Shown here piece after piece: positions 7,301 through 63,866 of a stretch of 64,000 nt of DNA. How positions within the stretch are numbered: the stretch's first letter is position 1; each line of letters opens with the position of its first letter. The DNA is taken from IMG/VR virus record IMGVR_UViG_3300045988_110999. One strand, written 5' to 3'. This DNA comes from a virus. Below the pieces are notes generated by a model, which saw only the letters and a program-made list of their open reading frames with translations, was not told the origin of the DNA and searched no databases. The position numbers and the translations under genes are program-made.

Positions 7301-10300
7301 CTTTTCCATCTTGCGGCGGGCTCCGTCTGCTAACCGGTAGATAGGCATACCATCGGGGAAGTATTTTTTAAAGATATGAAGGGGGTCTTCAAATTGGCGT
7401 TGAAGGATACTCATGCGCTCTTTGCCGGGCAGGACACCGGCGGCGTACAGGGCCGCTCTTTGAGCTGTTTCTTCGTGAGTTGGGATACCTACCTTGTGTA
7501 GTTGTTTGTCGATACGGTTTTTGAGAGATAAAGCGTCTGAGGAGGGGGTGTTCCTATTTTCAATAAAGTTGAGAAAAGCTTTAACAGCCTTATCTGTGAA
7601 AGTACCATTTGAGAATGGTTTTAGAACCTTCGCTTTTTCCAAGATAGAGGCTCTAGCAGAGCTCAATGTTCCAGCTCCGTCGATGGCTTTGTTTGCCATA
7701 TTGATAATTCTGCCTTCTACACCTTTTCGCTGCGATTTGTATTGAGGAGATTCTAAAGATAATTTAAGCTGGGATAAAGTTTTAGCTACAAAAAGTTCAT
7801 CATACAACTCTCTATCTTTTCTCAATGAATTTTGTAAAGTTTTGCTTCTTGATATTTTATCGCATACGTAGTCAATGAATTCCGGATTTATTATAGCATG
7901 GTCGTATACAAGCATTTTCCAACTATTAGTAAATCCATCACCGTCTCGAAGTTGTTTAATCAATTTATTTATATATTTAACTTCAAAATCTTTTAGCGTG
8001 TCATTCTCTTTATCGACGAAATTATTAGACGTGATATAATTCATCCCGTATTCTTTATCGCCTAATCCCCGTTCAATAGCGGCGTGGAGAGAGTGAATAG
8101 TTTCATGGAGTATAGTAGGTGTATTTTTATCCCCGGATAATGCGTCTTGGAAGATTCTAATTACGTTGTATTCGGAGTAAGTTCTGCCGAGAGCTCCAGT
8201 CTTTTCCTTTTGCCCATCATAAACAAACACGGTTGCCATATCGTCAAGAGCTTCCGCAATTTTCGACTGCAACCGTGGTGGTAAATCCTCGAAGGAATCA
8301 TTTATTAATTTGTTTAAAGTGGGGCCGTCAATATTTACCCCTTCTGGAGTGGCCAAATGGATGGCTTTCTTTAGTTTGTTGCCAAGCTTGGTTAATCTAT
8401 ATTCGGGTCCAAGCCCCCCACCGGCTTCATGTACTTGTCCAGAAATTTTCTGTCCCTTTTCCTGATTTTTTTGCCTACTTCTTCCTGCGTCATTCCTTTT
8501 GGGAGGGTAAGAATTCCGCTGCACCACATCCCCCTCCAAATGCTCGGGTCTGTTACCCCCTCTGGCATCGGAGGTAGCTTCGTCGGTCTGTACATTCCCA
8601 TCTTCTCCTTTCACTGTATGTCCATCCGCTAGGAATTGTTCCTGGTCTTCCTTACTAAGTCGGTTGAAAATATCCTGAGATGTATCATCCGGGAAGAAAG
8701 ACCGAGAAGCACCTGTAACATGGACTTCATTTTCCTTTGTAACCTTAATGTTATCTGGTTCTGTATCTATATTATAGTAGTCTGCGAGATAATCCGCAAT
8801 ATCCTGTTTATCGGCATCCTTTAATTTAACTTTATCCCCACCGAAGGTTTCAATTTCCCCTTTTGGAATTTTAACATCCATGTCAGAAACAGAAGAAGTT
8901 ACCATTTCATCTTTATATTTGTAAGACAGTTGATTTGGAGTAGCTATTCTTTCTTCTTTGGTGTTTACTATATATTTCCCTTGATTATTTACCGTTTCTC
9001 TATCTTTGCTCTCCGTTGCTTCGGCTTTGGTCTTTGCATTCTCTGTGTCTGCTTGCTTCTTGTATTTTTCGTATTCAGCCTTAGCCTTACTTACTTCTTC
9101 TTGGGTGTATTTGCCAGATTTGACGAGGTTCTGAAGAGCTTTGCCACCAGGGAAATTCACGGAATTAGCTACCTTGGTAGGACCGTCGTTAACCCAGCTA
9201 ATAATGTCAGGTACGAGATGCTCTTTGACATTCCCTCTCTGTACATACATACCTTTGTACTTATCCTTACTAAGGGTGGCGGCACGTTCCCCGTATTTCT
9301 TTTCTAGTTCTTCGTGATGAAGGAAATAGTGAATAGGGTCGTTATTAGCCAGGTGCTTACCACGGATTTCCTTAGCAAGAGCCTTACCGGCGGAATGAAC
9401 AGCTTTTATTTCCTCTTTTGTCCCTTTTGATTTAGCTTCGTTTATGGTAGTTCTTGTCTTTTTAGCCTTTGTAGCCGGGGAGAGTTCTTTAACAGGTTTC
9501 TCTTTTGGTTTGGATTCACTTTCTCCACCTTGAGCTTTCGACATGATATCCAACAAATCTTGAGAGCTACCTTCAACCGGCTTGAGTATTGTTCTTTGAG
9601 CTTCTTTTTTGTTTTCGTAGCTCCTCTTTGCCCGTTCTCTATTCTTTTCGTCGGATACCTGCTTTGCCTGTCTATCTACTTCGGCTATCTTCTGTTCGAT
9701 GTTCTGGATGTGGTCCAGAGGGTCATATTTATCCTGTGTACGGGCGTTGACGTAGGAGGTAACAGCTTCCTTGACGGATTCACGATACTTCTTAGGGAAC
9801 TTGGAGAGGAGTCGGTTCATACCGAGACCTTTCTTGTAGTTAAAGAAGTTTTCTACGAAGTTATGGAGCTCTGTGACAGCCTCCTTGTCCCTACCTTTGT
9901 TGGCATACTGGGACAGCTTTCGAGCGAACGGTGATTGAATCGTTATTTCGTGTGATTTATCGACACGCTGTTTTTCAAAACCACGGACGGCATCTACTTC
10001 AGCAATCTTATCCCGTTTGGCAATCTTGGCATTGGCCATCTCGATCTGATGGCTCTGTTCCTTAACGGACAGGCCTTCCATCTTCTTAGCATCGAGTGTA
10101 ACCCCCCTGTTTTTAGAGCTGGAGTTAATGTGCTGTACCGTATCCATGTGATTCTTTTTGCTGACGATAGCTTGTGTCTTATCCCTATTTTCGGTAAGAG
10201 CTTTCCCGGAGAGAGCTTTAATCTGATTACGGATTTTAGGGGGAACTTCCCCACCGGCGCTTTTAGTTATAACCTGTTTCACGTCGTTAGGAAGAGAATC

Positions 10301-12430
10301 GAAATTACCATCGGAGGTGTAATATTTAGAATGGACGCCATTCTTAGCAAAGTCGTCCTTGATAGTCTGTTCTGTTGCCTTTTGTTTCCCTTTCTTTTGG
10401 GTTTCGTAGGAACGTGTTGCGGCGGCAGAACTTGCTCTCAGGGTCTTAGAGATACCGGCGTCGTCCGGGGTAAGGCCTAATTTATTAAGCCGTGCTTTAC
10501 CAGCGTCAGAAATATCTCCACCCTTGGGTTTGTAGAAGTCGCTATGAGTCCCATTCTGTTTGATATCCTCTTGGATAGTGTTTACGGCGGTAGCTACGTT
10601 CTTCGTATGCTGTTCTTTATCAGCTTTACGGTTCGCTACTTCCTGTACGTGGATTTCCTTGCGCTGTGCCGGGAAGAAACCGGTGTTCGGAGAGATGCTA
10701 TTGGCATTATCTAATTCCTGTTGGGAAATAGGAAGGCCCAGTTCATTTTTCTTTTGGATGAGAGCTTGAGCCGTAGCCTGACGGTAACGGTCGTTATTTC
10801 GTTGTTGGAGGATAGCGGCTACTGGCTGTGCGCTCTTATTGTCGGAGATGATAGGGATATTCGGCGATTCTATCATAGCTTTAACGAGGTCATCCCGTTC
10901 CGGGCCCGTCATCATTGCTGTCCCATGTACTGGATTATAGCCAAGGACGCTCGCTTCCCCACTATCAATCAGGTTAGCAATCGCCTGATTAGCTGAATAC
11001 TGGTCGTCGCTCTTCCCGTAAGCTTCCTGTTCAGCTAAATCATACTCCGTTGGGTTATTCATCTTGTCCATGAGCTGTTGCGTGAATTCTTTAGGGCCTG
11101 TTGGTACAGAAGGTTCACTGACTGGTTGAGTAGCTGGGGCTTCCTGAGAGTTCATGGGGATGGCATCTAAATCCTGCTGAGTAAGTTCAGTTTCGTCAAC
11201 GGGGATATTTTCTGTAACCGGAGCTTCGTCTTGAATAGACTCTTCGACATTATGGGTATCATCCTGTGCGTGAACGGCATCATCAATCGGACTGGGAACA
11301 ACCTTTTCTTCACCAGTAGTGTCTACCCGTCTTGCTCTACGATGGCCGATACCACCAAGGAGGCCCATCGGAATCATGCCCATACCAGCCATAAACATCT
11401 GGTCCTTGGATTCATCACCCATTTCAATAGGATTGTAGTTGATATCTTCCCCGGTAAGAGCATTATTCTGGAATTCATTCTGTAAGCCTTCTGTATAGGA
11501 TTCCATAGCCATACCCGGGACACTATGAGTAAGGAGTCGAGTAGAATATCTCTTGTCCGCAAAGTCTGCTACCTTGCCCCCAAAGTCAGACAGGGAGCCG
11601 AGAAGTCCTTTCCCAGCTTCCTGTTCGGTTGATTCTGTCGCTCTACTAAGGAGTCTCTTAGGAGCGTTTGCGGCTCCTTTCAACATGCTCATAGATACGG
11701 CATTAGATGCTACCGACAATCCAATATTATCCATGAAGTCAGTATCCATAGCATTACGAGCTTCTTCTTGTGTAGCCCCGTTCTGAATAGCCTGATTATA
11801 TGTATCGCCTGCTTCTGATGCGGCATCTAAATAACCACCAGCGATGTCACCTGCGATTTTTGGAGCGGCACTGAAAGCTGTTCTAGCAATCCTTGCCCCC
11901 GTACCCAATTCTCCAACATCAGACCCTACGGCAATAGCCTTCTCTAAGGTGGAAGCTGTCTTTGCCAATCTTGCGGCTCTGGCCGCTTTTAAACCAGCTC
12001 CTACTACCGCACCACCAATACCGCCGGTAGCGGCGCCGACGAGAGCAGTGGCGGCCATGTCAGGGGCGGAAGAACCAACAAGATTGAAGGCGGTGTAAGC
12101 AAGGCCGTTTGGGTCTGTGATGAAATCAAAGAGACTATCGTTGCGGGTGAACTGCCGTCTTGCCTGTCTACCTTGGGCAAGAGCATCCCCAAAATCCTCG
12201 AGACCTTGTCCGAACCCGAATTCCTGATTCATATAAGTACCGATAGAACCGAGACTTGACCCCAAACCATTCATAGCGCCGTTAATGGCACTATCTAAGA
12301 ATCCACCATCACCGAATGAATCATAAGTCCCTCCATCATCCGGGGCAATGACACTATCGAGGTATTGGTCATTTGCGGCGGCTCTATCGTATAAGGCCTG
12401 AAGGTAATCTTCTGTAGTTCTTCCTGCCAT
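4391..12430 (-). CDS. Giant (2679 aa) virion-associated/ejection-type multidomain protein with an internal HExxH motif
   Basis: A single uninterrupted ORF. It has a Gly/Ala-rich hydrophobic N-terminus, a very long K/E-rich low-complexity middle, LHETIHSLH (HExxH, codons 8093-8107, aa 1442-1446), and a C-terminal part with hydrophobic segments. It lies next to the peptidoglycan hydrolase genes in the structural block. Confidence 0.75.
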   Translation of the reverse strand: MAGRTTEDYLQALYDRAAANDQYLDSVIAPDDGGTYDSFGDGGFLDSAINGAMNGLGSSLGSIGTYMNQEFGFGQGLEDFGDALAQGRQARRQFTRNDSLFDFITDPNGLAYTAFNLVGSSAPDMAATALVGAATGGIGGAVVGAGLKAARAARLAKTASTLEKAIAVGSDVGELGTGARIARTAFSAAPKIAGDIAGGYLDAASEAGDTYNQAIQNGATQEEARNAMDTDFMDNIGLSVASNAVSMSMLKGAANAPKRLLSRATESTEQEAGKGLLGSLSDFGGKVADFADKRYSTRLLTHSVPGMAMESYTEGLQNEFQNNALTGEDINYNPIEMGDESKDQMFMAGMGMIPMGLLGGIGHRRARRVDTTGEEKVVPSPIDDAVHAQDDTHNVEESIQDEAPVTENIPVDETELTQQDLDAIPMNSQEAPATQPVSEPSVPTGPKEFTQQLMDKMNNPTEYDLAEQEAYGKSDDQYSANQAIANLIDSGEASVLGYNPVHGTAMMTGPERDDLVKAMIESPNIPIISDNKSAQPVAAILQQRNNDRYRQATAQALIQKKNELGLPISQQELDNANSISPNTGFFPAQRKEIHVQEVANRKADKEQHTKNVATAVNTIQEDIKQNGTHSDFYKPKGGDISDAGKARLNKLGLTPDDAGISKTLRASSAAATRSYETQKKGKQKATEQTIKDDFAKNGVHSKYYTSDGNFDSLPNDVKQVITKSAGGEVPPKIRNQIKALSGKALTENRDKTQAIVSKKNHMDTVQHINSSSKNRGVTLDAKKMEGLSVKEQSHQIEMANAKIAKRDKIAEVDAVRGFEKQRVDKSHEITIQSPFARKLSQYANKGRDKEAVTELHNFVENFFNYKKGLGMNRLLSKFPKKYRESVKEAVTSYVNARTQDKYDPLDHIQNIEQKIAEVDRQAKQVSDEKNRERAKRSYENKKEAQRTILKPVEGSSQDLLDIMSKAQGGESESKPKEKPVKELSPATKAKKTRTTINEAKSKGTKEEIKAVHSAGKALAKEIRGKHLANNDPIHYFLHHEELEKKYGERAATLSKDKYKGMYVQRGNVKEHLVPDIISWVNDGPTKVANSVNFPGGKALQNLVKSGKYTQEEVSKAKAEYEKYKKQADTENAKTKAEATESKDRETVNNQGKYIVNTKEERIATPNQLSYKYKDEMVTSSVSDMDVKIPKGEIETFGGDKVKLKDADKQDIADYLADYYNIDTEPDNIKVTKENEVHVTGASRSFFPDDTSQDIFNRLSKEDQEQFLADGHTVKGEDGNVQTDEATSDARGGNRPEHLEGDVVQRNSYPPKRNDAGRSRQKNQEKGQKISGQVHEAGGGLGPEYRLTKLGNKLKKAIHLATPEGVNIDGPTLNKLINDSFEDLPPRLQSKIAEALDDMATVFVYDGQKEKTGALGRTYSEYNVIRIFQDALSGDKNTPTILHETIHSLHAAIERGLGDKEYGMNYITSNNFVDKENDTLKDFEVKYINKLIKQLRDGDGFTNSWKMLVYDHAIINPEFIDYVCDKISRSKTLQNSLRKDRELYDELFVAKTLSQLKLSLESPQYKSQRKGVEGRIINMANKAIDGAGTLSSARASILEKAKVLKPFSNGTFTDKAVKAFLNFIENRNTPSSDALSLKNRIDKQLHKVGIPTHEETAQRAALYAAGVLPGKERMSILQRQFEDPLHIFKKYFPDGMPIYRLADGARRKMEKFVGDYSQKFLDVFKGLDKDERKVFDSLVLKANEMHRDPMQVINLDDGIHLAVRHDAFIEHYDSAPEALKKMQEIRNSGKYRLSKMIQESEENENAGFGKGFTVFALPKGSAAFKSEAAAQKYAKVHEKEAYVSMIRSLSDKPMKSSQVDNVMNSFMKYRDMMDKVYETSVQAAKESGANYKLPKKLNGYFPQIHLPYVVWIKDKDTKTFVRTASFYNASEASKKVKELNRAGQEAYWAEINPINAMAHGDRLAKVDRMTEDQLKQLNDEGLISVSESNNDTGNYNETLKRVFNSLFKEHHTVAVKDVMAHIEKVNRYKSNTGSAAHDNYVKKLQSQIRVTGLYKKLQKMKKDATISQDELNNIINSANMKQQFNPFFQKRSGASGYSQNVADSVYRYLITSGNFISKAKFYAEATAYYTSKYHKDIREEATTNEQKFLKTYIEANHRPTSVTALDRMINDYMNLLAEKDPTGIGSLLRRRYGHNLYTGLAKDTLSLQNLLKLGLFRPASLAVQAFQVLNANAKLGGNKFVGMSKYFRTGLKEATGSKNDAKWKELYDYIGINERSVAIDSEILGRPTGVFDKKILFGKSAKDFTDKSMWFFNVGDKWARKATAIGGYLKAMDDFKALTHDEKKMMLNEAITSWQTKKERARQNHYPFKAPKPTTESVRKEFVFNKTKDLVTETNFNYSVTDSPLAMTEAGVTGKLLLQFKKYPLFTLNFILHNTKEENIRFLVPMFIMAGALGMPCANLVDDIFDKTTGHSPVMALKKGMINWAGGSSAKKALVNVALYGAPSLAGINLSGNIGLGDAIQFDLGPTVSTVSNIAQGNGIIRSLAPRLGALEEAVTGKKENKYGQITAKYTPYDQLLKVFGFRTMAETNSSDATRVMKLATQKYNECKSQAKKEYIKNPNTDNYEALKIYGMSDRDIAKLLKTKDTTAMENSVKTVPKKAKSPAAQEVRDLSKTAQEFVK

Positions 12431-33899: not shown

Positions 33900-33974
33900 T
33901 GGCGGCGGTACTTAGAATCGAACTAAGACTAGCAGAGTCAAAGTCTGCTGTACTGACCGTTATACGATACCGCT
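33900..33974 (-). tRNA. tRNA-Gln (anticodon UUG), CCA encoded
   Basis: Hand-folded cloverleaf. Anticodon stem GCAGA/TCTGC, loop CTTTGAC. T-arm CTTAG-TTCGATT-CTAAG. Acceptor AGCGGTA/TACCGCC with an A1xC72 mismatch. Confidence 0.75.
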
Positions 33975-33977
33975 ATG

Positions 33978-34051
33978 TGGCATGGGTACAAGGACTCGAA
34001 CCAAGATTGACGGTTTTGGAGACCGTAGTCTTTCCATTAGACGATACCCAC
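33978..34051 (-). tRNA. tRNA-Trp (anticodon CCA), CCA encoded; T-stem has two U-U mismatches
   Basis: Acceptor GTGGGTA/TACCCAT. Anticodon stem ACGGT/ACCGT, loop CTCCAAA. T-arm CTTGG-TTCGAGT-CCTTG is imperfect. Confidence 0.6.
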
Positions 34052-34052
34052 A

Positions 34053-34140
34053 TGGCAGAGGAGGTGGGATTTGAACCCACGGTGCTGCTACGCACAGCTG
34101 TTTTCAGGACAGCCACCTTAATCCACTCGGACACTCCTCT
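34053..34140 (-). tRNA. tRNA-Ser (anticodon UGA), long variable arm, CCA encoded
   Basis: Acceptor AGAGGAG/CTCCTCT. Anticodon stem GCTGT/ACAGC, loop CCTGAAA. T-arm GTGGG-TTCAAAT-CCCAC. 88 nt, type II. Confidence 0.75.
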
Positions 34141-34144
34141 AATC

Positions 34145-34218
34145 TGGTTGCGGGGGATAGAGTCGAACTATCGTAACTGGGGAATGAGCCCAGCGTCCTA
34201 CCTTTAGACGACCCCGCC
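34145..34218 (-). tRNA. tRNA-Met (anticodon CAU) with initiator-like features
   Basis: Acceptor GGCGGGG...CCCCGCAACCA with a 1x72 mismatch. GGG/CCC closes the anticodon stem, loop CTCATTC. T-arm GATAG-TTCGACT-CTATC. Confidence 0.7.
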
Positions 34219-34896: not shown

Positions 34897-37353
34897 TTAC
34901 ATAGAACCGGCCAACGGGATTTCGTCTGTGACGACCTTCTCGTAAGAAGCGACCGGAGCAAAATAAATCTGGTCCTGATAGGCAAGTGCGTCAATCAGGT
35001 CATCATGCAAGGACTTCGGGAAAGCAAGGAATTCGCTTTCCAATTCCCCAAGAAAGGACGCTCCCATCGGGAACCATACGGTGCCAGCTTTGAACCGGGG
35101 CTGTACGGCTTTGATACGCTCTTCTTTCTTTTCCTTGGCTTCCAAATCCTTGACCGTGAACCAGATATTCCTCTTTGGCATTTCCTTTTCTATGAAGTGG
35201 GATAACGCCGCTTGGTAAGCGACCTTTTCCATACCCACATAGACAGGATGGTATCGAGTGACCGCCTCGAAGATAGCGTCTATCGTCTGGGTCGGATCGA
35301 ACCTCCCATACTTTATATCCAATACGAACCAATGGTTTTCACTATTGACCCCCACAGTGCAGACTACGGTATAGTCCGCGGTTTCTTTCTGGGAAATAGC
35401 TAGGTCTACCGTAGTGAAGATGTTCATATCCTTCACATCAAGCTCTTCTTGCTTGTAGTATTTGAAGTATTCTTTCTTGAACAGCTGGGTTTCCGGGGAA
35501 ATAGCAATACACATCTTTTCCCGTTCCCATACATCCAGATTCCCGATTCGTCTAAAAGCTTCCCTTTCCGCTTTTATCTCTTCGGAGCTCCATCTTTCGG
35601 GCCATACACTGTTTCCTTCTGCGTCTAGGATAGGGATACGGACACCGGTAAACTTCAAATCTTTCTGGTTCTCTATGACTCGTTCTATCAGGCATTTTTC
35701 ACCCAGATTGTTCCCGATCATGAAGATTCTCGTCTTCTTCCCTAAGAACAATACGTCGGACAGGAACCATTCCCAGTCCCCTTCCTGTACGGTATCTGAC
35801 TTCGCATCTTCCAAGTCTTGTGGGTCGTCAATCAGGACAATAGACGGTCGGGCATCGTGAACGTTCAAACCACGGATAGCAGCCCCTTTGCCGTAAGCTT
35901 CAAAACGGACCCACATCTCTTCGTCATCTTTATCTTTTACGATGACCTCGAAACCGTTCTGGGACTGTTCTACGATACGTACCAGGTTCATGGATAGTAG
36001 CTCATTATTGAGCCATTCATCCTCAATTTCCTTTAACCGCTTACTGGCAGCTCTCTGCGTAGCCATGATAAAGACTACGTACTGCCTATCCTTGGAAGGA
36101 TATGTCAGGCAGTGCATCGGGAAGGCTCTTAGTACGACGCCGCTATTATGGGTAACGATGCAGCCAGTACCACATAAAAACAGCCCCGTAGGGCTGTCTA
36201 CCTTGATACACATGGTGGGGACGGACTCACATTTAGAGACTTTCTTGACACTCCTCATCAGAGTGCGTTTATCCTGAGTATCACAAATCAAATCCCTCTT
36301 CCTTTTTAACTGAGGGAATTTAACTGTGGTCTTGAACGACACATCATAATGTGGCTTACATTCTTTGCCGTAGAGCTTAGATGGTTTCTTTATAATAGTA
36401 GCCTTAATACCTAAGCTTCTGACTAAATATAAAGTCCCCATAGCCAATCTTTCATTGGTGTTTGTGAAAGTAACCGTCCCAGCCTTGCTACCAGCCTTGG
36501 CAATCGTACCGTCACTATCAATGAGACCGGCCAATAATTGCCACCTGTTTTCCTCGCTGTCGTAGTAATACTCTTCCGGGATGTGCTTGTCGTATATCAA
36601 CCCAAGGGATTTAAGCTCTTTCAAGAACCCTCCTTGGAACTTTATCGTCATTGCCGTTTTATCTTTGCGGCATGTCTTGGTTCCCCAGTCGATGTTCAGG
36701 AATGTCTCTTCAAAATCTTCCCCACCGCAAGTGATTTCGGCTGCTTTTGAATGACCATCTCCAAGCCATAACCCCAAATCATACGGAGAAATGATATGTT
36801 CTTTCCGAGGGTATTGTAAGGGCATAGCTAATGGTATACGGTATGCCTTTTCTTGATATCCTTTTTTAGGTTTTCCCAAATCCTGCTTTGCGTACATCTC
36901 CAGTGTGGTTACGATATTCCATCTACGTTTGTGCTTGTCCCATACGCTCCACAGATGTTCTGCATCAGCAGTGATTTCCTCCCCGTCGTCAAATTCGACT
37001 TTGAAGCAAGGATGATCGTAAAAAATCTCGGAGGTGCTACCAACTAACACTGGGTTCCCATTCTCATCAAATACGTAGTCCCCCGGCTTGATTTCCCCCA
37101 TCAGCTTATATCCACTAGGGGTCGGGATAGGGGTGAAAATCGAGATTGCTTTTCCTGACTCACGAAAGCCCTCTACAGCGTAGTGGTGCTTGCCTTTTAA
37201 CAGTATCTTTCCCCATTCCTCTTGGAATGAAGGGGTCTTTACTTCATCTTCGACGGGGAGGAATACTCTTCTGAATAACATAAGGTCATCTTTGGCGTCA
37301 CGGAACAGCTTCGCCATCATTACTTTCTTGTCCATATCTCTCTCCCCTTTCAT
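34897..37353 (-). CDS. terL: Terminase large subunit, interrupted by an intein
   Basis: Extein motifs are Walker A GFRESGK|S (split by the intein), Walker B SIVLIDDPQD, and nuclease-domain TTVDLAISQKETADYT and DDLIDALAY. Without the 335-aa insert the protein is 483 aa. Confidence 0.85.
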   Translation of the reverse strand: MKGERDMDKKVMMAKLFRDAKDDLMLFRRVFLPVEDEVKTPSFQEEWGKILLKGKHHYAVEGFRESGKAISIFTPIPTPSGYKLMGEIKPGDYVFDENGNPVLVGSTSEIFYDHPCFKVEFDDGEEITADAEHLWSVWDKHKRRWNIVTTLEMYAKQDLGKPKKGYQEKAYRIPLAMPLQYPRKEHIISPYDLGLWLGDGHSKAAEITCGGEDFEETFLNIDWGTKTCRKDKTAMTIKFQGGFLKELKSLGLIYDKHIPEEYYYDSEENRWQLLAGLIDSDGTIAKAGSKAGTVTFTNTNERLAMGTLYLVRSLGIKATIIKKPSKLYGKECKPHYDVSFKTTVKFPQLKRKRDLICDTQDKRTLMRSVKKVSKCESVPTMCIKVDSPTGLFLCGTGCIVTHNSGVVLRAFPMHCLTYPSKDRQYVVFIMATQRAASKRLKEIEDEWLNNELLSMNLVRIVEQSQNGFEVIVKDKDDEEMWVRFEAYGKGAAIRGLNVHDARPSIVLIDDPQDLEDAKSDTVQEGDWEWFLSDVLFLGKKTRIFMIGNNLGEKCLIERVIENQKDLKFTGVRIPILDAEGNSVWPERWSSEEIKAEREAFRRIGNLDVWEREKMCIAISPETQLFKKEYFKYYKQEELDVKDMNIFTTVDLAISQKETADYTVVCTVGVNSENHWFVLDIKYGRFDPTQTIDAIFEAVTRYHPVYVGMEKVAYQAALSHFIEKEMPKRNIWFTVKDLEAKEKKEERIKAVQPRFKAGTVWFPMGASFLGELESEFLAFPKSLHDDLIDALAYQDQIYFAPVASYEKVVTDEIPLAGSM
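36145..37149 (-). mobile_element. Class-3-type intein with a LAGLIDADG homing endonuclease, inserted in the terL P-loop
   Basis: aa 69-403. It starts with Ala directly after GK. Block B is ADAEHLW (Trp at B12). LAGLIDADG motifs are LGLWLGDGHS and LLAGLIDSDGTI. Block F is VPTMCIKV (Cys at F4). Block G is CIVTHN followed by Ser+1 (Thr at G5). Confidence 0.8.
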
Positions 37354-40289: not shown

Positions 40290-41597
40290 ATGGGTAAACG
40301 TATTATTTGCATCGACAGTAAGGACAATAAGGTATGTTTCTATGATAAGAACGACAATCTTTTTGTTCTGGATATTGGCAACGAAATGCTTATGGGAAAG
40401 ACTTTCCCCTGCCCTCATTGTGGGAAAGAACACGAGGTAAAGGATTTTGTACAGATCGGGGATGAGCTACTATGCTCTGATTGCTATGACCCTAGCTTCT
40501 ATGATAAATGCTCAGAATGTGGGGAATACTTTAAGAAGGATGAGCTGTTTGACATAGACGGTAAACGGCTCTGCAAGTCCTGTTTCAACAATAATTATTT
40601 TACCTGTGATAATTGCGGAGCGGTTTATCCAAAATCAGAAGCCGTCTATGTTGGATATGACAGATTTTGCCAGGATTGTGTCGACCAGCTTCTAGACGAA
40701 GGAGAACTCATCCAGTGCGTCTGCTGTGATGAAATCTTGCGGGCTGAGGATGCTTATGAGCTGGATGGAAATTTCTACTGCTCGTCCTGCTATGACCAGG
40801 AACGTGAAGAAGAATATGGAGACTCCATCGTAGGATACCACTGTAACCGTCCATTCCGGTTCAAGAGTTTGGCCAGCGATGTAGATTACCCGAAAAAAGG
40901 TAATCTTTACCTAGGTTTAGAACATGAACTGTCTAACGCCGGGGAAGATAACTACAAGCTGGCAAAAGAGCTTGTAGATGATTATGACCGTGTTTGCGAA
41001 CACGACTCGTCAATCAGTGATGGGTTTGAAGTCATCTCAGACGCATTGACATTTGATTATTGGAGAAAGAAGGAAGATTTGCAGGCTTATATGAATACCA
41101 TTAACAGATTGTCGGATTTCGATCCGGACGACTCTAGCGGTATCCATGTCCATATTTCTAGAGGCCCTCTCTCCGACAATGCTGTCATTGAAATGGCGTG
41201 GTTCGTCATGCAACATTACGACGACTGCATTAAATTTGGTCGTCGCGACCCCGACGAATGTGAGTATTGTGAACGGGTCACGAGAGGCGACAAGGAAGAC
41301 TTATGGGATTATGCTACGGGTCATGGTGTAGCCGTCAACCTCGAACATGAATCGAACCTCGAATTGCGGTTCTTTAAGACGACCGACGATGTCGACCACA
41401 TGTGGGCCATCTTAGAATTTAGCTACGCATTGGCTATGGTAGCGAAAGGGGGTGTCATTGATATTGAATGGGCGGATATCCGTAAATTCTGTGAAGAAGA
41501 TGGGAAAGAAGAACATTTCCTCGCCGAATTGAACGAAGGATTCGATTGCGAAGAGAATGAGGATTATGAATATAACCTCACCGAATACTTTGCTTGA
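40290..41597 (+). CDS. Repeated CxxC zinc-ribbon N-terminal region fused to an amidoligase-like (COOH-NH2 ligase) C-terminal domain
   Basis: Six or more CxxC...CxxC units (CPHCGKEH..CSDCYD..CSECGEYF..CKSCFN..CDNCGAVY..CQDCVD..CVCCDE..CSSCYD) are followed by LYLGLEHELSN...CEHDSSISDGFEVISD...SGIHVHISR...LELRFFK. I recognise the latter as the putative amidoligase fold pattern. Confidence 0.55.
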   Translation: MGKRIICIDSKDNKVCFYDKNDNLFVLDIGNEMLMGKTFPCPHCGKEHEVKDFVQIGDELLCSDCYDPSFYDKCSECGEYFKKDELFDIDGKRLCKSCFNNNYFTCDNCGAVYPKSEAVYVGYDRFCQDCVDQLLDEGELIQCVCCDEILRAEDAYELDGNFYCSSCYDQEREEEYGDSIVGYHCNRPFRFKSLASDVDYPKKGNLYLGLEHELSNAGEDNYKLAKELVDDYDRVCEHDSSISDGFEVISDALTFDYWRKKEDLQAYMNTINRLSDFDPDDSSGIHVHISRGPLSDNAVIEMAWFVMQHYDDCIKFGRRDPDECEYCERVTRGDKEDLWDYATGHGVAVNLEHESNLELRFFKTTDDVDHMWAILEFSYALAMVAKGGVIDIEWADIRKFCEEDGKEEHFLAELNEGFDCEENEDYEYNLTEYFA

Positions 41598-41650: not shown

Positions 41651-42541
41651 ATGTGTGTTATCGCTGTCTATGAAAAAGGTTTGGTTTTGAACGAAAATGA
41701 ATTAAAGAACTGCTTTACAGGCAATTCCAACGGGGCTGGACTCATGTATCAGAAAGACGGCAAAGTCCATATTGAAAAAGGCTTCATGAAATGGGATACA
41801 TTCTGGGAGGCGGCTAAACATCTCCCCTCTGATGTAGATAGGGTCTTTCATTTCCGGATTGCTACTAGTGGTAAAATCAGTGCCGCTTGTTGTCATCCCT
41901 TCCCTATCTGTGATGACTATAAGAAAATGAGCTTGGCTAGTTGTGATACCCCCATGGGATTCGCCCATAACGGGGTTCTTGGCGATTTCGAGCCGAAGAA
42001 AGGAATGAAGTCCACTTATTCAGATTCTATGAAGTTCGGTAAAGAAGTCCTGTTCCATTTAGGTAATCTCTTAAATGAACGTAGTGTACGGGATTTGATT
42101 GAATTGTACACAACTTCCCGGTTTGCCATTATGACTCCCAAGAATACCTATATGATTGGCTCATGGGAACAGTCAAGAGAGTCGGGAGCGTTTTATAGTA
42201 ACACGTCCTATGAAGGATACCGTTATTTAAATTGTTTCGACGATTCGTTCGTCAGAAGTTATTATTCCGACTTTGTTTATGGTGGATATACACAAGATGA
42301 TTATACGGAAGGTATTCTCATTGAAAGATTCCCAAACAACGAAAAAATAGAAAATGAAATTGCCGAAGCTATCGAGGAACAGTTGGGCGTGTTCATCTAC
42401 GATACCGACGACTCCAATGTAGGAAAATTCAAAGATACCACATTCTTCATTGAAAGGGAATTAGGCAAACGACTGCCAGAGAGTGGAATTATTAAAGTTG
42501 GCAAGCGTGATGTCAAATGGAGAAGAATCAGTTTAAAATAA
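41651..42541 (+). CDS. Class-II (Ntn) glutamine amidotransferase-like protein
   Basis: Start MCVIAVYEKG... places a Cys directly after the initiator Met (Ntn nucleophile). NSNGAGLMY...HFRIATSG...HPF...AHNG is the GATase-2 pattern. Strong SD AGGAGG. Confidence 0.65.
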   Translation: MCVIAVYEKGLVLNENELKNCFTGNSNGAGLMYQKDGKVHIEKGFMKWDTFWEAAKHLPSDVDRVFHFRIATSGKISAACCHPFPICDDYKKMSLASCDTPMGFAHNGVLGDFEPKKGMKSTYSDSMKFGKEVLFHLGNLLNERSVRDLIELYTTSRFAIMTPKNTYMIGSWEQSRESGAFYSNTSYEGYRYLNCFDDSFVRSYYSDFVYGGYTQDDYTEGILIERFPNNEKIENEIAEAIEEQLGVFIYDTDDSNVGKFKDTTFFIERELGKRLPESGIIKVGKRDVKWRRISLK

Positions 42542-42552
42542 TAATAAAGTTA

Positions 42553-42606: not shown

Positions 42607-42843
42607 ATGACAAGGTTAGAGATGTATTTGACAGAAGCTACGAGGATGTATGCATTTTATCCTTTATGGGATCGTAATGACACTCCGAGTGTAATAAGAA
42701 GGTTTATCGAGGATAGAACGAGATGTTTCGACAGGCCATACCCCCTTTTATTCGATTGTCCGAAAGTTTTGTCTTGTTACGACGATTGCGAGGCTTGCTG
42801 GAATCGTTTCTTTAAGAACTTTAGTGAGGTGCCTGCCTTATGA
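42607..42843 (+). CDS. CxxCW small Cys-rich protein, paralog 1 of 5
   Basis: 78 aa, ...FDCPKVLSCYDDCEACWNRFFKNF.... SD AAGAGGTGA. Confidence 0.6.
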   Translation: MTRLEMYLTEATRMYAFYPLWDRNDTPSVIRRFIEDRTRCFDRPYPLLFDCPKVLSCYDDCEACWNRFFKNFSEVPAL

Positions 42844-43085
42844 ATGAAGAGGAAAGGATTTTAACAATAAGAGTAAGGAACGTCTGTAAAGATATGGGCG
42901 CAGATAATTTAAGTGTTTTCGCATCTGGATTGATAGAGTATGCGTTGGAACATGGTGGTACAGATACCATATCAGGACTACCTCGAATCTGTTCCGGTTC
43001 TAACTGTATCGTTGGCAAGACTTGTAAAAGATGCTGGGGAAAGGAATTCGATAAGCTACAGGAAGGTGGTGAACCATTATTATGA
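42840..43085 (+). CDS. CxxCW small Cys-rich protein, paralog 2 of 5
   Basis: 81 aa, MNEEERILTIRVRNV...ICSGSNCIVGKTCKRCWGKEFDKL. ATGA overlap with paralog 1. Confidence 0.65.
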   Translation: MNEEERILTIRVRNVCKDMGADNLSVFASGLIEYALEHGGTDTISGLPRICSGSNCIVGKTCKRCWGKEFDKLQEGGEPLL

Positions 43086-43339
43086 ACAGAGAAGAATTAG
43101 TATTGACCTTACGGATTAGATATGTAATGAGTATACGCAACGGGGCCAATATCACACTTGTCATAGATGACATGAGGAGATGTTGCGAAAAGCTTAATTA
43201 TCAGAAGGCTTATGGATTTTCCCTTTTTTGCGCATGTCCGTGCTCCTGTACTAGGAATTGTTCCTGCTCAGAATGTTGGGAAGAAGCAATAACCAAATTC
43301 CTTATCCTTAGCAGCGGAGATGTTGATATTTCTTTGTAA
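43082..43339 (+). CDS. CxxCW small Cys-rich protein, paralog 3 of 5
   Basis: 85 aa, MNREELVLTLRIRYV...FCACPCSCTRNCSCSECWEEAITKF. ATGA overlap with paralog 2. Confidence 0.65.
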   Translation: MNREELVLTLRIRYVMSIRNGANITLVIDDMRRCCEKLNYQKAYGFSLFCACPCSCTRNCSCSECWEEAITKFLILSSGDVDISL

Positions 43340-43350
43340 CGGAGGCGAAA

Positions 43351-43599
43351 ATGATGAATAACGACGAAATGGTATTGACGATGAATATTAGGTATCTACT
43401 CACGATGAATGCAAAAGAAACGGCCCTTTTGGGGGTCATTAAAAATCGTGTTAATGTCATCAACAACCGGAGAGAGAATAATTGCGAACCCTATGCCGGT
43501 TGTCCTTGTGACTGCCCCATAAACATAACTTGCACACAATGTTGGTCCAGGGCAATAGCCAGGTTTGTGTGTATAGAAGACAATGCGCCCGTTTTATGA
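43351..43599 (+). CDS. CxxCW small Cys-rich protein, paralog 4 of 5
   Basis: 82 aa, MMNNDEMVLTMNIRYL...YAGCPCDCPINITCTQCWSRAIARF. Confidence 0.65.
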   Translation: MMNNDEMVLTMNIRYLLTMNAKETALLGVIKNRVNVINNRRENNCEPYAGCPCDCPINITCTQCWSRAIARFVCIEDNAPVL

Positions 43600-43610
43600 G
43601 AGGTGATACT

Positions 43611-43862
43611 ATGATAGAATGTGAAATCTATATGACACTGGCAATGAGAAATGTTTACGATAACGACTTCGTAAGGCCTTTAAAAATCAAGGACAGGGTT
43701 AAATACTTTGCCTCAGCGTACAAAGAAAGAAAGGCTACTAAAAGCTGGGTATATTGCGGGCATCCGGTTACACTATCATTTTGCCACTTTTCGTGCCCTG
43801 ATTGTTGGAGACATTGGACAAAAGAATTTACAGACAATAAACAAGACCATTGCGATTTATAA
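43611..43862 (+). CDS. CxxCW small Cys-rich protein, paralog 5 of 5 (most diverged)
   Basis: 83 aa, MIECEIYMTLAMRNVY...YCGHPVTLSFCHFSCPDCWRHWTKEF. SD GAGAGGTGA. Confidence 0.6.
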   Translation: MIECEIYMTLAMRNVYDNDFVRPLKIKDRVKYFASAYKERKATKSWVYCGHPVTLSFCHFSCPDCWRHWTKEFTDNKQDHCDL

Positions 43863-43876
43863 GGAGGAAACTGCCT

Positions 43877-44281
43877 ATGAAGCAAATCAACAGTTTTGCA
43901 AAGAAGATGGTAAACCGATTAAAGAAAGAAGGTTTTACGATTCAATACTACCATGCCCGAAGTACGAACAGTGTGTATCTTAAATTAGATTATGGTATGG
44001 GGCATAGTATCCGTATCAGCGACCACAAAGGGAAACACCATTTAAAGTATCGGTACAACATGGTTATGTATGGAACCAAACCTAGGAAGTGTATCTCTAA
44101 ATTCGGCCCCCGCTATTTTGCCCCATTCAAGAACATGGAGTATATGGTGGGGATTATTAAAAAGGAGAAAGTAGGCTTAATTAATCGAATTGGAACTGAT
44201 AAGTATGAAGAGGGTATGAAACTTAACTTCCTGATTAACGATGGCAAGCCTGGGTTTTGGGCGAATTATAAATTAGTATAG
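43877..44281 (+). CDS. Hypothetical basic protein
   Basis: ATG at 43877 after AAGGAGGA. 134 aa, contains GHSIRISDHKGKHH. Confidence 0.6.
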   Translation: MKQINSFAKKMVNRLKKEGFTIQYYHARSTNSVYLKLDYGMGHSIRISDHKGKHHLKYRYNMVMYGTKPRKCISKFGPRYFAPFKNMEYMVGIIKKEKVGLINRIGTDKYEEGMKLNFLINDGKPGFWANYKLV

Positions 44282-49893: not shown

Positions 49894-51096
49894 CTATTTT
49901 ACATAAAAGCGTCTTGCGGCTTCCGACTGACGTTCTTTGGAATACGAGCTGATACGTTTCAAGTAGCCGATAACTCGTGTACCATAATCAACGTCATGAG
50001 AACCACATTCCGTGCAATGGTCTTCTGTGTTTACGTTGATATAACCACAATCATTGCAAATGGTAACTAAGCAATTATATGTCCAGTAATTTACTCCTAA
50101 TCTCCCGGCCACACAAATTAAATCATATGCCTGATTCTTGCTGAACAGCTGGGCGATGTTAAGATGACATGCGCTACCACCATCGAGGTACTTAGTGGTT
50201 TCTTTCCCATGAAGGAACAACTTATCGAGAATGGTTAAAGAATCGTTTTCAACTGGGAAGAAATAAGAGTTATAGCAGTCACGGGGTACGGACAACCCAT
50301 CATGCTTATCCCACTGAGCATTTTTAACGCCAAGGCCCTCCGCAGGCACATATTCGGTGTTAAATCGGAACCCATATACAGCCCTATCTGCCTTATTGAG
50401 GTCGTAAATAACTTTCAAGTACTTGGATACTTCTTTCTGATATGCTTCTTTATCAACTACGGGGGAGAATCCTTTATATTCCATAGCTTCAAGCATACCG
50501 TTGATACCAATAGTACCAAACTGAGTATCGAAGTTAATAAACTGAGCTGTGTAAGCCGGTAACATACCAAGCTCGATGTAATGTTTGATAACGGCTCTGT
50601 GAGCGGCAAGGTATTTATGAATACGAGAAATCAAGTCACCGAACGGTAACTTACCTTCATACTGCTGTACGTACCGGTTCATGTTGATGGTAATTACTCG
50701 GAAAGAGCCAGTTGATACACCGCCAGCCCCCAACGTGTAAGAGAAGGTATTGTCAGCCAGTTCGTTGCGGAGCCGGCAACACGATGCGAGAGAGTCAGCA
50801 CTACGAGACTCATAGATGAAGAAGGACAGGCCCTTAGACATTTCTTCGGCAAGGAACCATGCAAAGTCCTTATCTTTCGGTTTCTTATCCTCGTCCAGCA
50901 ACACGGCGGCGGTAAGTACCGGATAGGTAAGGAGTTCTTTTTTGCGCTCCATGCGGAACCATTCCATAAAGAATTCCTGTAACCGACTCAGACTCTTGTA
51001 ATCTGGTTCGGTGCCATCAGGGAAACGGAAACCGCCAAAGATACCATCAAAGTAGTATTTATCGAATACAGAGATATTCCAAAACACGGATTGATT
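49894..51096 (-). CDS. nrdD: Anaerobic ribonucleoside-triphosphate reductase, exon 2
   Basis: After splicing it begins NQSVFWNISVFDKYYFD. It ends with the Zn-ribbon CNDCGYINVNTEDHCTECGSHD and the glycyl-radical motif RVIGYLKR. Confidence 0.85.
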   Translation of the reverse strand, partial: NQSVFWNISVFDKYYFDGIFGGFRFPDGTEPDYKSLSRLQEFFMEWFRMERKKELLTYPVLTAAVLLDEDKKPKDKDFAWFLAEEMSKGLSFFIYESRSADSLASCCRLRNELADNTFSYTLGAGGVSTGSFRVITINMNRYVQQYEGKLPFGDLISRIHKYLAAHRAVIKHYIELGMLPAYTAQFINFDTQFGTIGINGMLEAMEYKGFSPVVDKEAYQKEVSKYLKVIYDLNKADRAVYGFRFNTEYVPAEGLGVKNAQWDKHDGLSVPRDCYNSYFFPVENDSLTILDKLFLHGKETTKYLDGGSACHLNIAQLFSKNQAYDLICVAGRLGVNYWTYNCLVTICNDCGYINVNTEDHCTECGSHDVDYGTRVIGYLKRISSYSKERQSEAARRFYVK

Positions 51097-51405
51097 CGAG
51101 CGCCCTATGCTTTCACATAGGCTCTGACTATCTCTTACTAACGAATGTTAGCACACCATTTCGAGGAACGTATCAATAGTTCCCCTACTCCCCCACAATA
51201 GGGGATAGTCGATACACCTTCTAAACTGTAATGTTGGCATAACTTATACCTGCCTTTATATTATATATCGTATGGTAGGTAACTCCATAAAGTTTAGCTT
51301 GGCTCGGGATTGGCATACCTGAATGGCTTTAGCTTTCCCCGACAGCCGTTGAATAATCAACGACCTCGCTGATAAACGATTAGATGTGTAGTGGCAATAT
51401 TACTT
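51097..51405 (-). ncRNA. Group I self-splicing intron (309 nt, no internal ORF) interrupting nrdD
   Basis: P1: exon GUGGU (51410-51406) pairs with intron GCCAC (51395-51391), giving U-G at the splice site. P7: GACUAUC (51210-51204) pairs with GAUAGUC (51132-51126), the latter within AAGAGAUAGUCAG, which resembles the group I S element. P8 hairpin 51151-51138. P9 hairpin 51122-51103. The terminal G is at 51097. A 3-bp P10 is possible. Confidence 0.8.
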
Positions 51406-52020
51406 ACCACGTGCCGCGGCTGGCTGGTTGAGGGCATAAACAACGCCCTGTAATTCCTGTGCGATACGGTCTTTAGCTACAGAGAGGTAATTATTCCCAT
51501 ACTGTTTACGAGCAAAATAGTCGAAGTACATAAGGAACTCTACGGTTGCCGTTGCCCCGGCCCAATTCGTAGCCAGTTGGTATACGAGATTCACAAAGGA
51601 ACCGCAGAAGGACTGGAGATTCTTAGGAGCTTTACTCGTGCCCCCTAAACACTTTGTACCATTCAGCAAAAACGGGTACATAGTAACAGAGGCGCAGTAA
51701 GGAAGAAAAGCAGCTAATGTTTCGTCATGGCAATACAGAAGATGACTTTCAATATCTTCCTCGTACTGGTCGGCTAAATCCTCTCCAAACATTTCCGTGA
51801 TTTTGTCTTTGACGATTTTACGGCTGACCTGGATGTTCTCGAACTTGTACATCTCTTCCTTGAGTGTGCCCATGTTCTTTTCGGAAACATTGGAGTTAGG
51901 GTCTACTAAGGAAGCCGAGGCGTTATTGGTGGCCCCGATATAAAAATTAATGAAATCTACCTTTTTCTGAATCTGTTCCGGTGTAAGATAGTTAAAGAAC
52001 GATTTCTTATTTGTCATCAA
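51406..52020 (-). CDS. nrdD: Anaerobic ribonucleoside-triphosphate reductase, exon 1
   Basis: 205 codons ending ...VVYALNQPAAARG at the proposed 5' splice site. The unspliced frame stops 2 codons later. Confidence 0.85.
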
Positions 52021-62747: not shown

Positions 62748-63866
62748 ATGGCACGAAAGAGAAGCAACGGAGAAGGAACCGTATATGTAAGGAAAGATGG
62801 GACTTATTGCGCCCAAGAGACGATAGACAAGAAACGAATCACCGCCTATGGAAAGAACAAGACCGAGGCATTAGCCAAGCTCAAGAAGAAGATAAAGGAT
62901 AAAATGACCGCTGGCGAAGTTATCTCCTCCAACAAGGATATAACAGTAGCCCAATATCTACCTTATTATGTAAGTGGAATTCCACTCACTAACAAAAGCA
63001 CTAAGGAAAATTATGGTTCTATTCAACGCAGAATCGCGTCACTAACTGGAGAATTAAAATTATCAAAAGTCACGAACTCCACTCTAAATAGTTTCGCAGT
63101 CAATATGAAAAGCCTAGAATATGCAGACAGCACAATCCACTCAACCGTAAAATTCTATATGAGAGCTTTAAAACAGGCTCAGAGAGAAGGTTACATAAGT
63201 CAGAACATAAACCTTGATTACATCGCCCATCGCAAACAGAAACCATACATACTCCCTAAAGTCAATGATGTTATAAAGTCTTTGAAAGAGATTCGCCCCA
63301 TTGGTATGAGATACTTAGGTTTATTTTGCTTATATACAGGCCTTAGACGGGGAGAGTTGATCGGATTAAAATGGAAAGACATTGATGAAGAGAAGGGAAT
63401 TATTACGGTTAAAAGAAATTACACCTGTGAGGTATCATCCCACCGGCTATACATAAAGTCTCCAAAGAATGGATTGGCTGGGCAGATAGTACAAATACCT
63501 GACGATGGAATGAAGTTGCTTACGTTCCTCAAAGAGGAGTATAAGAAAGCAAACATTCATAGTGAATTTGTTTTCTGTGACAAAAACGGGAGACACCTTC
63601 GTCCGGATAGTGTAACAGCTACACTCCACCGGGCCATGTTACGGGTGTCTCCCAAGGGGTCGGTTCATATATTAAGGCATCTTCATGCCACGATTTTAGC
63701 AAAAGAAGGGGTTCCTTTACGGACTATTTCAAAGCAGCTAAGGCACTCGTCTATCGTTACAACGTCTATCTACATTAACGCTATGGAAAACGAAGTCTAC
63801 GACGAAATTAAAGGGGTCTCTTTACCCGGTTGCAGTAGTGTTGCAGTAGACCATAAAGAAAAATGA
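62748..63866 (+). CDS. int: Tyrosine recombinase (phage integrase)
   Basis: SAM-like N-domain plus catalytic-domain motifs: LYTGLRRGELIGLKW (Arg I), HILRHLHATILAKEG (HxxR), LRHSSIVTTSIYIN (His/Tyr). Confidence 0.9.
   Translation: MARKRSNGEGTVYVRKDGTYCAQETIDKKRITAYGKNKTEALAKLKKKIKDKMTAGEVISSNKDITVAQYLPYYVSGIPLTNKSTKENYGSIQRRIASLTGELKLSKVTNSTLNSFAVNMKSLEYADSTIHSTVKFYMRALKQAQREGYISQNINLDYIAHRKQKPYILPKVNDVIKSLKEIRPIGMRYLGLFCLYTGLRRGELIGLKWKDIDEEKGIITVKRNYTCEVSSHRLYIKSPKNGLAGQIVQIPDDGMKLLTFLKEEYKKANIHSEFVFCDKNGRHLRPDSVTATLHRAMLRVSPKGSVHILRHLHATILAKEGVPLRTISKQLRHSSIVTTSIYINAMENEVYDEIKGVSLPGCSSVAVDHKEK

Follow-up and report, generated by a model that had tools for sequence, protein, structure and literature searches.

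What do five small, diverged, cysteine-rich proteins encoded side by side contribute to the phage that carries them? The question is raised by IMG/VR virus record IMGVR_UViG_3300045988_110999, a stretch of 64,000 nucleotides (nt) that we refer to in its entirety as the window. Positions 42607-43862 of the window hold five plus-strand open reading frames (ORFs) of 78-85 amino acids (aa), arranged head to tail, which we call p1 to p5 and collectively the array (Table 1). The best explanation of the locus is that it encodes a lineage-restricted multigene family of small cytoplasmic ~80-aa proteins, which look expressed and are translationally coupled. We tentatively favor a role, to which we assign a probability of roughly 40%, as metal-stabilised binders of different host proteins that serve takeover or counter-defence.

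Five paralogues in a translationally coupled array

An earlier note on this DNA, made without database searches, had described five coupled genes of 78-85 aa with two ATGA overlaps and had listed the motifs CEACWNRFF, CKRCWGKEF, CSECWEEAI, CTQCWSRAI, and CPDCWRHWT. The ORF coordinates confirm this layout, and all five motifs are present. The p1/p2 and p2/p3 junctions are the ATGA overlaps, the p3/p4 and p4/p5 gaps measure 11-14 nt, and 4-nt overlaps make up the majority of junctions across related arrays. A strong ribosome-binding site of the GAGGTG/GGAGG type lies 4-9 nt 5' of each of the five starts; the Shine-Dalgarno sequence of p1, AGAGGTGA, sits 8 nt 5' of its start. No sixth copy of the family was found elsewhere in the 64-kb window.

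Pairwise identity among the five copies is only 20-34%. Several comparisons connect them. First, family profiles from which one type at a time had been left out retrieve all five copies from the 451 ORFs of the window at E values of 2e-10 to 5e-16 (with its own type excluded, p1 is found at 2e-10, p2 at 8e-11, and p3 at 2e-15), and the best unrelated ORF scores E >= 0.25. Second, profiles built from single orthologue groups connect p2, p3, p4, and p5 at E values of 1e-3 to 1e-14. Finally, the pairwise alignment of p3 and p4 is significant by itself (56 bits). By these sequence comparisons the five copies are true paralogues, with homology far beyond chance, as the earlier note had proposed. 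Its description of low identity combined with preserved length and motif spacing also holds.

The anatomy of the family was derived from 37 representatives with less than 60% mutual identity; residue numbers follow p5. Residues M1, E5, T9, and C62-x2-C65-W66 are invariant in all 37 representatives and R13 is present in 36 of them; E5, T9, and R13 are identical in all five window copies. In all relatives the CxxCW motif begins between residues 55 and 69, leaving 13-19 residues after it. The C-terminal residue is Leu in 34 representatives and Ile in the other three, usually with Pro or Cys at position -3, and all five window copies end in Leu-stop.

Two further putative ligands precede the CxxC. 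The column of the first, which stands before a nearly fixed Pro, holds Cys in 29/37 and His in 6/37 representatives, the two exceptions being p2-type copies in which the Cys is displaced three residues later. The third Cys of the site lies 3-6 residues (mostly 3) ahead of the CxxC: C-x3-C-x2-C is found in p1, p5, and most relatives, and the spacing is x5 in p2 and p4. The overall family pattern is [C/H]P-x(2-7)-C-x(3-6)-C-x2-C-W, and this cysteine pattern is kept in all homologues, so that the loss of conservation which would have refuted the earlier note is not seen.

The middle of the protein behaves differently. Hydrophobic periodicity aside, residues 14-50 have an entropy above 3 bits in the 37 representatives, as against ~0 at the motif positions, and variation within a type clusters at residues ~14-30 and 36-50. 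Net charge spans -8 to +6 and the isoelectric point (pI) 4.6-9.4 across family members; the proteins are therefore neither uniformly basic nor uniformly acidic.

Predicted fold, metal site, and relation to known proteins

We searched Pfam-A, PHROGs v4, NCBIfam 20, and PADLOC 2 with the five copies and 35 diverse members and obtained no significant match. The best sub-threshold matches involve single members (E 0.004-0.9), and no library family was matched by more than one of the 35 members. Among them are one member matching the anti-defence model Tad6 at chance level (E 0.12) and one matching Fer4_12 (E 0.86), with no significant match to an iron-sulfur (Fe-S) Pfam family. A profile search of PDB sequences returned only the CteB radical-SAM cluster motif, which is not significant (E 0.85).

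AlphaFold2 models of p4 (predicted local distance difference test score [pLDDT] 78, predicted template modeling score [pTM] 0.63) and p5 (pLDDT 85, pTM 0.74) share one topology: three helices, a Cys-rich loop before helix 3, and a low-confidence tail. The helices span residues 4-18, 23-42, and 61-75 in p4 and residues 3-18, 26-42, and 62-75 in p5. Taking Foldseek E <= 0.001 or a template modeling (TM) score > 0.5 as a structural match, we found none for the p4 and p5 models in PDB or for p4 in BFVD; the best E values are 2.3-8.8 and TM scores are at most 0.39 among the matches listed. Literature searches did not turn up a described family of this kind. That the earlier note did not recognise the family agrees with these results: libraries, PDB sequences, and Foldseek return no match, and no well-characterised family with a housekeeping role was found among known families. 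On these sequence and model comparisons neither the protein family nor, apparently, its fold has been described before. What is familiar is the kind of locus: small phage accessory genes that evolve fast and form a variable cluster, with a structural metal site.

In both models the CxxC is placed at the start of helix 3 (C61/C64 in p4, C62/C65 in p5), and the other ligands are placed in the loop at residues 43-60. This predicted arrangement, in which the CxxC occupies the first turn of a helix and the remaining ligands come from the preceding loop, is that of the treble-clef/zinc-knuckle structural class. That four ligands are conserved, that one of them alternates between Cys and His, and that the CxxC falls within the first helical turn together point to a four-ligand structural metal site. 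The metal is most likely zinc, for which the Cys/His alternation at ligand 1 is indirect support.

An Fe-S cluster in place of zinc would make the proteins redox- or O2/NO-sensitive modulators, WhiB-like in function; this would be compatible with the binding of host proteins, and we judge it unlikely. A cluster is possible because C-x3-C-x2-C spacing predominates and the host is anaerobic (the phage encodes thioredoxin and the anaerobic ribonucleotide reductase NrdD). A further ligand that stands before a Pro, as in ferredoxin motifs, points the same way, as does the nonsignificant CteB match. Against it, the spacing varies between 3 and 6 residues, His occupies ligand 1 throughout one subtype (which is more usual of zinc sites), and neither the Fe-S Pfam families nor WhiB1 show similarity (hhalign probability 0.3% for the family profile against an approximate WhiB1 sequence).

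WhiB-like (Wbl) proteins, including those that actinophages encode to modulate their hosts, are small, helical, four-Cys proteins that bind a host sigma factor. They bind a [4Fe-4S] cluster and are restricted to Actinobacteria. The array family differs from them in lacking both the C-Xn-C-X2-C-X5-C order and spacing and the G[VI]WGG turn, and the relatives of the array lineage are in Veillonella and Lachnospiraceae, not in Actinobacteria.

Alternatively, the proteins could regulate transcription by binding DNA or RNA polymerase, as functional analogues of zinc-containing phage regulators or of zinc anti-sigma factors, with a separate promoter set or sigma factor under the control of each copy. 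Their size, helical content, and Cys cluster at a helix N-terminus recall Ogr/Delta, TraR/DksA-like, and anti-sigma proteins. The operon includes an antirepressor, and nucleic acid could be contacted by the invariant Thr and Arg, which share a helix face. P2 Ogr/P4 Delta and TraR/DksA-like proteins, phage and plasmid factors that target RNA polymerase, and lambda Ea8.5, a hybrid of homeodomain and zinc finger, are zinc-stabilised proteins of ~70-90 aa with helices and a Cys4 site; they differ in being encoded by single-copy genes, and they have no Pfam, PDB-sequence, or structural match to the array family.

The zinc-containing anti-sigma (ZAS) domains of RsrA, ChrR, and RslA (zf-HC2) are another parallel, with ~80-90 helical residues, an [H/C]-x3-C-x2-C arrangement that the C-x3-C-x2-C of the array family resembles, and a CxxC that opens a helix. 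ZAS domains work by binding another protein. In the array family, however, the first ligand lies 5-10 residues upstream, as against ~25-30 in ZAS domains; the spacing to the CxxC is 3-6 residues; and there is no match to PF13490 or, in Foldseek, to a ZAS structure. No member matches the Pfam families zf-HC2, DksA/TraR, or Ogr_Delta, and the hhalign probability of the family profile against an approximate RsrA sequence is 0.2%. Many copies are acidic, no helix-turn-helix (HTH) is predicted, and it would be unusual for one operon to encode five to nine regulators. A regulatory role of this type is thus improbable in our view.

Distribution, evolution, and candidate role of the array

A complete HMMER scan of 1.84 billion cluster representatives identified 28 clusters at E <= 1e-3, with sizes of 76-98 aa, or 108 aa where an upstream ATG was called. 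A broader profile yields 55 proteins of 76-87 aa, none of which has a Pfam domain or a fused domain. All copies with readable context occupy one syntenic locus of a single uncultured phage lineage. No GenBank phage resembles the region at the DNA level, except within the antirepressor.

Related loci are labelled L001, L002, L003, L005, L007, L013, and L015-L017, and P0019, P0023, and P0050 denote family proteins. The array has five copies in the window, seven in L003, eight plus a disrupted p2 in L001, nine each in L005 and L007, and eight plus one frameshifted copy in L015-L017. The census of family and copy number that the earlier note had called for therefore gives 5-9 copies per array within one phage lineage. 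In every related locus the array opens with a p1-type copy and closes with a p5-type copy.

Each window copy has its own orthologue in sister phages, at 62-92% identity, which places the duplications before the clade. Some copies are chimeric. P0019 joins the N-terminal part of a p5-type copy to a C-terminal part that does not differ from that of L007_7535, and P0023 and P0050 have one C-terminal part in common. These chimeric copies suggest recombination at the conserved CxxCW.

Nei-Gojobori pairwise ratios of nonsynonymous to synonymous substitution rates (dN/dS) among three phages are 0.19-0.54 for array orthologues and 0.02-0.11 for six flanking genes, rough values that come from three genomes and ~45-50 synonymous sites per array gene. 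The array ratios are 5-10 times those of the neighbours yet remain below 1. The array is thus under weaker constraint than its neighbours and still under net purifying selection. The data show relaxed or partly adaptive evolution together with copy-number turnover (5-9 copies, pseudogenes, and chimeras). The earlier note had spoken of diversifying duplication and had proposed a dN/dS analysis: the paralogy, the divergence, the turnover, and the faster evolution stand, whereas positive selection finds no dN/dS value above 1, and the duplications are older than the clade. Recent horizontal acquisition of the array was considered and set aside; its GC content (40%) resembles that of the operon (42%).

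Several side observations concern change within the array. Between positions 40290 and 44281 of the window, synonymous divergence from L001 and L003 is strongly mosaic: ~1 or saturated in the amidoligase-like and amidotransferase-like genes, 0.19-0.88 in the array, and ~0.12 in the 134-aa gene. This indicates recombination breakpoints around the array.

In L001 (positions 8365-8649), and also in L002, the p2-type gene is wrecked. The first 23 and last ~11 codons are left, and in L001 the middle ~140 nt are replaced by an unrelated, GC-richer insert of ~187 nt whose ends pair as a ~20-bp stem. A match to RAGATH-18 at L001 8520-8587 reaches 28.8 bits, below the gathering threshold of 44.9 (E 0.0017 in the E-value mode of Rfam; fold z-score -1.6). 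The insert may be a small mobile structured-RNA element. In L015-L017 (11169-11414), a frameshift or stop splits a family pseudogene into a 26-aa N-terminal and a 50-aa C-terminal piece. L015 belongs to a 365-kb scaffold, so the phage may be integrated there or mis-joined.

In the role that we favor, the predicted metal, most likely Zn2+, would hold together a fold too small to be stable alone. The constant face (the E5-T9-R13 stripe of helix 1, the Trp after the knuckle, the hydrophobic residues of helix 3, and the P/C-x-Leu-COOH tail) would be structural or would dock on a common partner. Each copy would use its variable face (the end of helix 1, the loop, and helix 2) to bind a target of its own, with a host protein as the most plausible candidate. 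The phage would thereby possess a toolkit of small binders or inhibitors with which to take over the host or counter its defences, and the contents of this toolkit would be reshuffled among related phages as copies are gained, lost, or recombined at the conserved CxxCW. We infer early timing only from the place of the array in a non-structural operon, which also contains the antirepressor and an SNF2 helicase.

Anti-defence and anti-CRISPR islands are alike in consisting of small genes at a fixed site, with variable content and faster evolution than the flanks. They differ in that their genes are usually unrelated, as opposed to the 5-9 paralogues of the array. An aca-like HTH gene, as found with anti-CRISPRs, does not accompany the array: the 134-aa downstream gene matches no HTH, and the nearest regulator is the Rha/KilAC antirepressor two genes further on.

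Several points weigh against host-protein binders. First, the proteins have no similarity to known anti-defence or takeover proteins in PADLOC, the anti-defence Pfam models, or Foldseek. Second, an arms race is not demonstrated, because dN/dS is below 1 on few genomes and sites. Third, an Fe-S cluster is a possible cofactor. Finally, the invariant E-T-R stripe and C-terminal Leu fit a shared enzymatic or recognition role at least as well. The constancy of E5, T9, R13, W66, and the terminal Leu is unusual for simple inhibitors; it suggests a shared partner or a shared chemical step, and host-protein binding leaves it unexplained.

If both metal binding and host-protein binding are true, the family would be a new small fold among phage host-modulating proteins and a natural case in which a single operon holds 5-9 specificities derived from one scaffold. 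It would also help to find new host targets or defence systems in anaerobic Bacillota (Veillonella, Lachnospiraceae) and offer a compact binder scaffold. Its reach is limited by its confinement to a rare, uncultured phage lineage.

The upstream enzyme pair, the stem-loop, and other features

The gene order of the lineage on one strand is small ORFs, a LIM-finger/amidoligase-like gene, an amidotransferase-like gene, the array, and a gene for a 134-143-aa protein. The Rha/KilAC antirepressor, SNF2 helicase, and DUF805 genes come next, and the NrdD and thioredoxin genes lie further on. The SU10-type portal and the terminase are encoded on the opposite strand from the array operon.

Table 1. Features of the array locus, in window coordinates (Ntn, N-terminal nucleophile).
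Feature	Position	Strand	Description
Amidoligase-like protein	40290-41597	+	LIM-like zinc-finger N-terminus, amidoligase-like C-terminal half; context of array
Amidotransferase-like gene	41651-42541	+	Starts MCVIA, resembles Ntn/class-II amidotransferase; context of array
Conserved stem-loop	42552-42578	+	Stem GGGCCTG, loop CTTAGA, stem CAGGCCC, then TTTT
p1	42607-42843	+	78 aa; first in array; ligands DCP...SC-YDD-CEACW; tail ...EVPAL
p2	42840-43085	+	81 aa; ligands LPRIC-SGSNC-IVGKT-CKRCW, first ligand displaced; tail EGGEPLL
p3	43082-43339	+	85 aa; richest in Cys (9 Cys): FCACPCSCTRNCSCSECW; tail GDVDISL
p4	43354-43599	+	81 aa, or 82 aa from ATG at 43351; ligands GCPCDCPINITCTQCW; tail DNAPVL
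p5	43611-43862	+	83 aa; last in array; ligand 1 His, not Cys: GHP...FC-HFS-CPDCW; tail DHCDL
134-aa protein	43877-44281	+	Highly conserved; directly 3' of array in all related loci; dN/dS 0.03-0.11

The 134-aa protein has no HTH or other library match and no close relative in GTDB genomes; in JGI metagenomes, close relatives were found on two short contigs only. The amidotransferase-like protein has no close relative in IMG/VR. In the amidoligase-like protein, the N-terminal ~180 residues consist of repeated CxxC pairs and match the LIM domain (E 5.5e-8), a module for protein interactions that occurs mainly in eukaryotes. The C-terminal half matches Amidoligase_2 at 16.7 bits, under the Pfam cut-off of 22; the amidoligase assignment is supported by a match to phrog_16683 and by tblastn matches to annotated phage amidoligases. 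Amidoligase_2 enzymes (Pfam accession PF12224) are reportedly predicted to partner amidotransferase-like thiol peptidases in peptide or protein modification.

This pair lies directly upstream of the array in every array-bearing phage, which brings in a second explanation. The small proteins could be partners or substrates of the two enzymes, acting as adaptors or as carriers or tags that are ligated through the terminal Leu or Glu5. The invariant terminal Leu/Ile on a flexible tail, often after GG-x-P, and the invariant Glu5 would suit this role, and the ligase bears unusual N-terminal LIM-like protein-interaction fingers. Still, the GG motif is missing from p1, p3, p4, and p5, the amidoligase match stays below the Pfam cut-off, and a conserved terminator-like hairpin stands between pair and array. 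The adjacency itself counts as one evolutionary observation, because all instances belong to one lineage in which the gene order is fixed.

The pair also occurs without the family. It is found in two distant relatives (a contig of Veillonella sp. VA139 and a contig of a Lachnospiraceae metagenome-assembled genome, with portals 59-67% identical), in Marvin-like Mycobacterium phages, in MEP402 and MW202733, and in a Christensenellales phage. LUZ24-like phages also carry the amidoligase/amidotransferase pair (PMC3890496). The portal of the array lineage is ~30% identical to LUZ24-type portals. We looked for a small Cys-rich family gene adjoining the pair in the other pair-bearing phages and found none. 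The LUZ24-like and Marvin-like pairs are the same two-gene module as that upstream of the array; in the array lineage the ligase has gained a LIM-like N-terminal region, and the others lack an adjoining Cys family.

Since the pair is present without the array in distant relatives and unrelated phages, it does not need the array, and since the Veillonella relative holds other genes in its place, the array position behaves as a variable accessory slot. A partnership with the enzymes consequently receives a low probability from us. Less probable again is a specific form of it, in which the array would be the variable specificity part of a phage protein-modification system (adaptors, or tags ligatable through the P-x-Leu tail), each paralogue modifying a different host target. 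Were this true, the phage would have its own counterpart of ubiquitin- or Pup-like conjugation, equipped with an internal library of specificities.

In L013 (the contig of Veillonella sp. VA139, NZ_RQVL01000001), positions 782-1677 hold two unrelated ~147-aa acidic paralogues and a 69-aa ORF in the array slot, which is bounded there by the amidotransferase-like gene and the SNF2 helicase. The matches in Veillonella and in the Lachnospiraceae metagenome-assembled genome are the sole clue to the host range of the lineage.

The neighbouring enzymes bear on one more explanation, in which the proteins would be precursors of ribosomally synthesised and post-translationally modified peptides, each combining a conserved leader at the N-terminus with a Cys-rich core that varies. 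Tandem, diverged short ORFs with a conserved N-terminal 13-mer and a Cys-rich C-terminal half, whose neighbours encode a putative ATP-dependent ligase and an enzyme resembling a peptidase, invite this comparison. Yet it is the two termini and the Cys motif that are most conserved, with the middle variable, and the models predict helical domains confidently (pLDDT 78-85). The operon has no gene for a radical-SAM enzyme, lanthipeptide synthetase, cyclodehydratase, YcaO, ATP-grasp maturase, or exporter. We regard such precursors as very improbable.

The stem-loop stands between the stop of the amidotransferase-like gene and the ribosome-binding site of p1 and is also detected on the minus strand. 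Five related loci preserve it; in L005, the most divergent of them, a C:G pair has become A:T by compensatory change. Public gene callers begin p1 at the ATG at 42517, which gives a protein of 108 aa. We rejected this start, as its reading frame crosses the conserved hairpin and the upstream extension is not conserved in L005; 42607 is the better start.

The hairpin looks like an intrinsic terminator, though it could also form a 5' stem-loop on the transcript of the array. At window positions 42510-42545, just 5' of the hairpin, two weak sigma-70-like promoter matches (9/12 positions) overlap the end of the amidotransferase-like gene. Use of either promoter would place the hairpin at the 5' end of the array transcript, in which case it would not be a terminator.

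Elsewhere in the window, two genes appear to be interrupted. NrdD is split between 49894-51087 and 51400-52020 on the minus strand, ~310 nt apart, with the two parts covering positions 7-154 and 185-560 of the Pfam NRDD model. A GIY-YIG endonuclease gene splits the L003 counterpart, and L001 has an uninterrupted NrdD gene for 604 aa. The split in the window and L003 suggests an intron or homing site; Rfam at the gathering threshold gives no intron model at NrdD. The large terminase subunit (34897-37353, minus strand, 818 aa) has an inserted Hom_end/LAGLIDADG homing-endonuclease region that looks like an intein, and the terminases of L005, L007, and L015-L017 are insertion-free at 472-477 aa.

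The structural module includes a 2679-aa ORF (4391-12430, minus strand) that matches nothing in Pfam at E <= 1e-4. Four tRNA genes (Gln-TTG, Trp-CCA, Ser-TGA, and Met-CAT) lie between the portal and terminase genes at 33900-34218 on the minus strand, and an integrase gene is located at 62748-63866.

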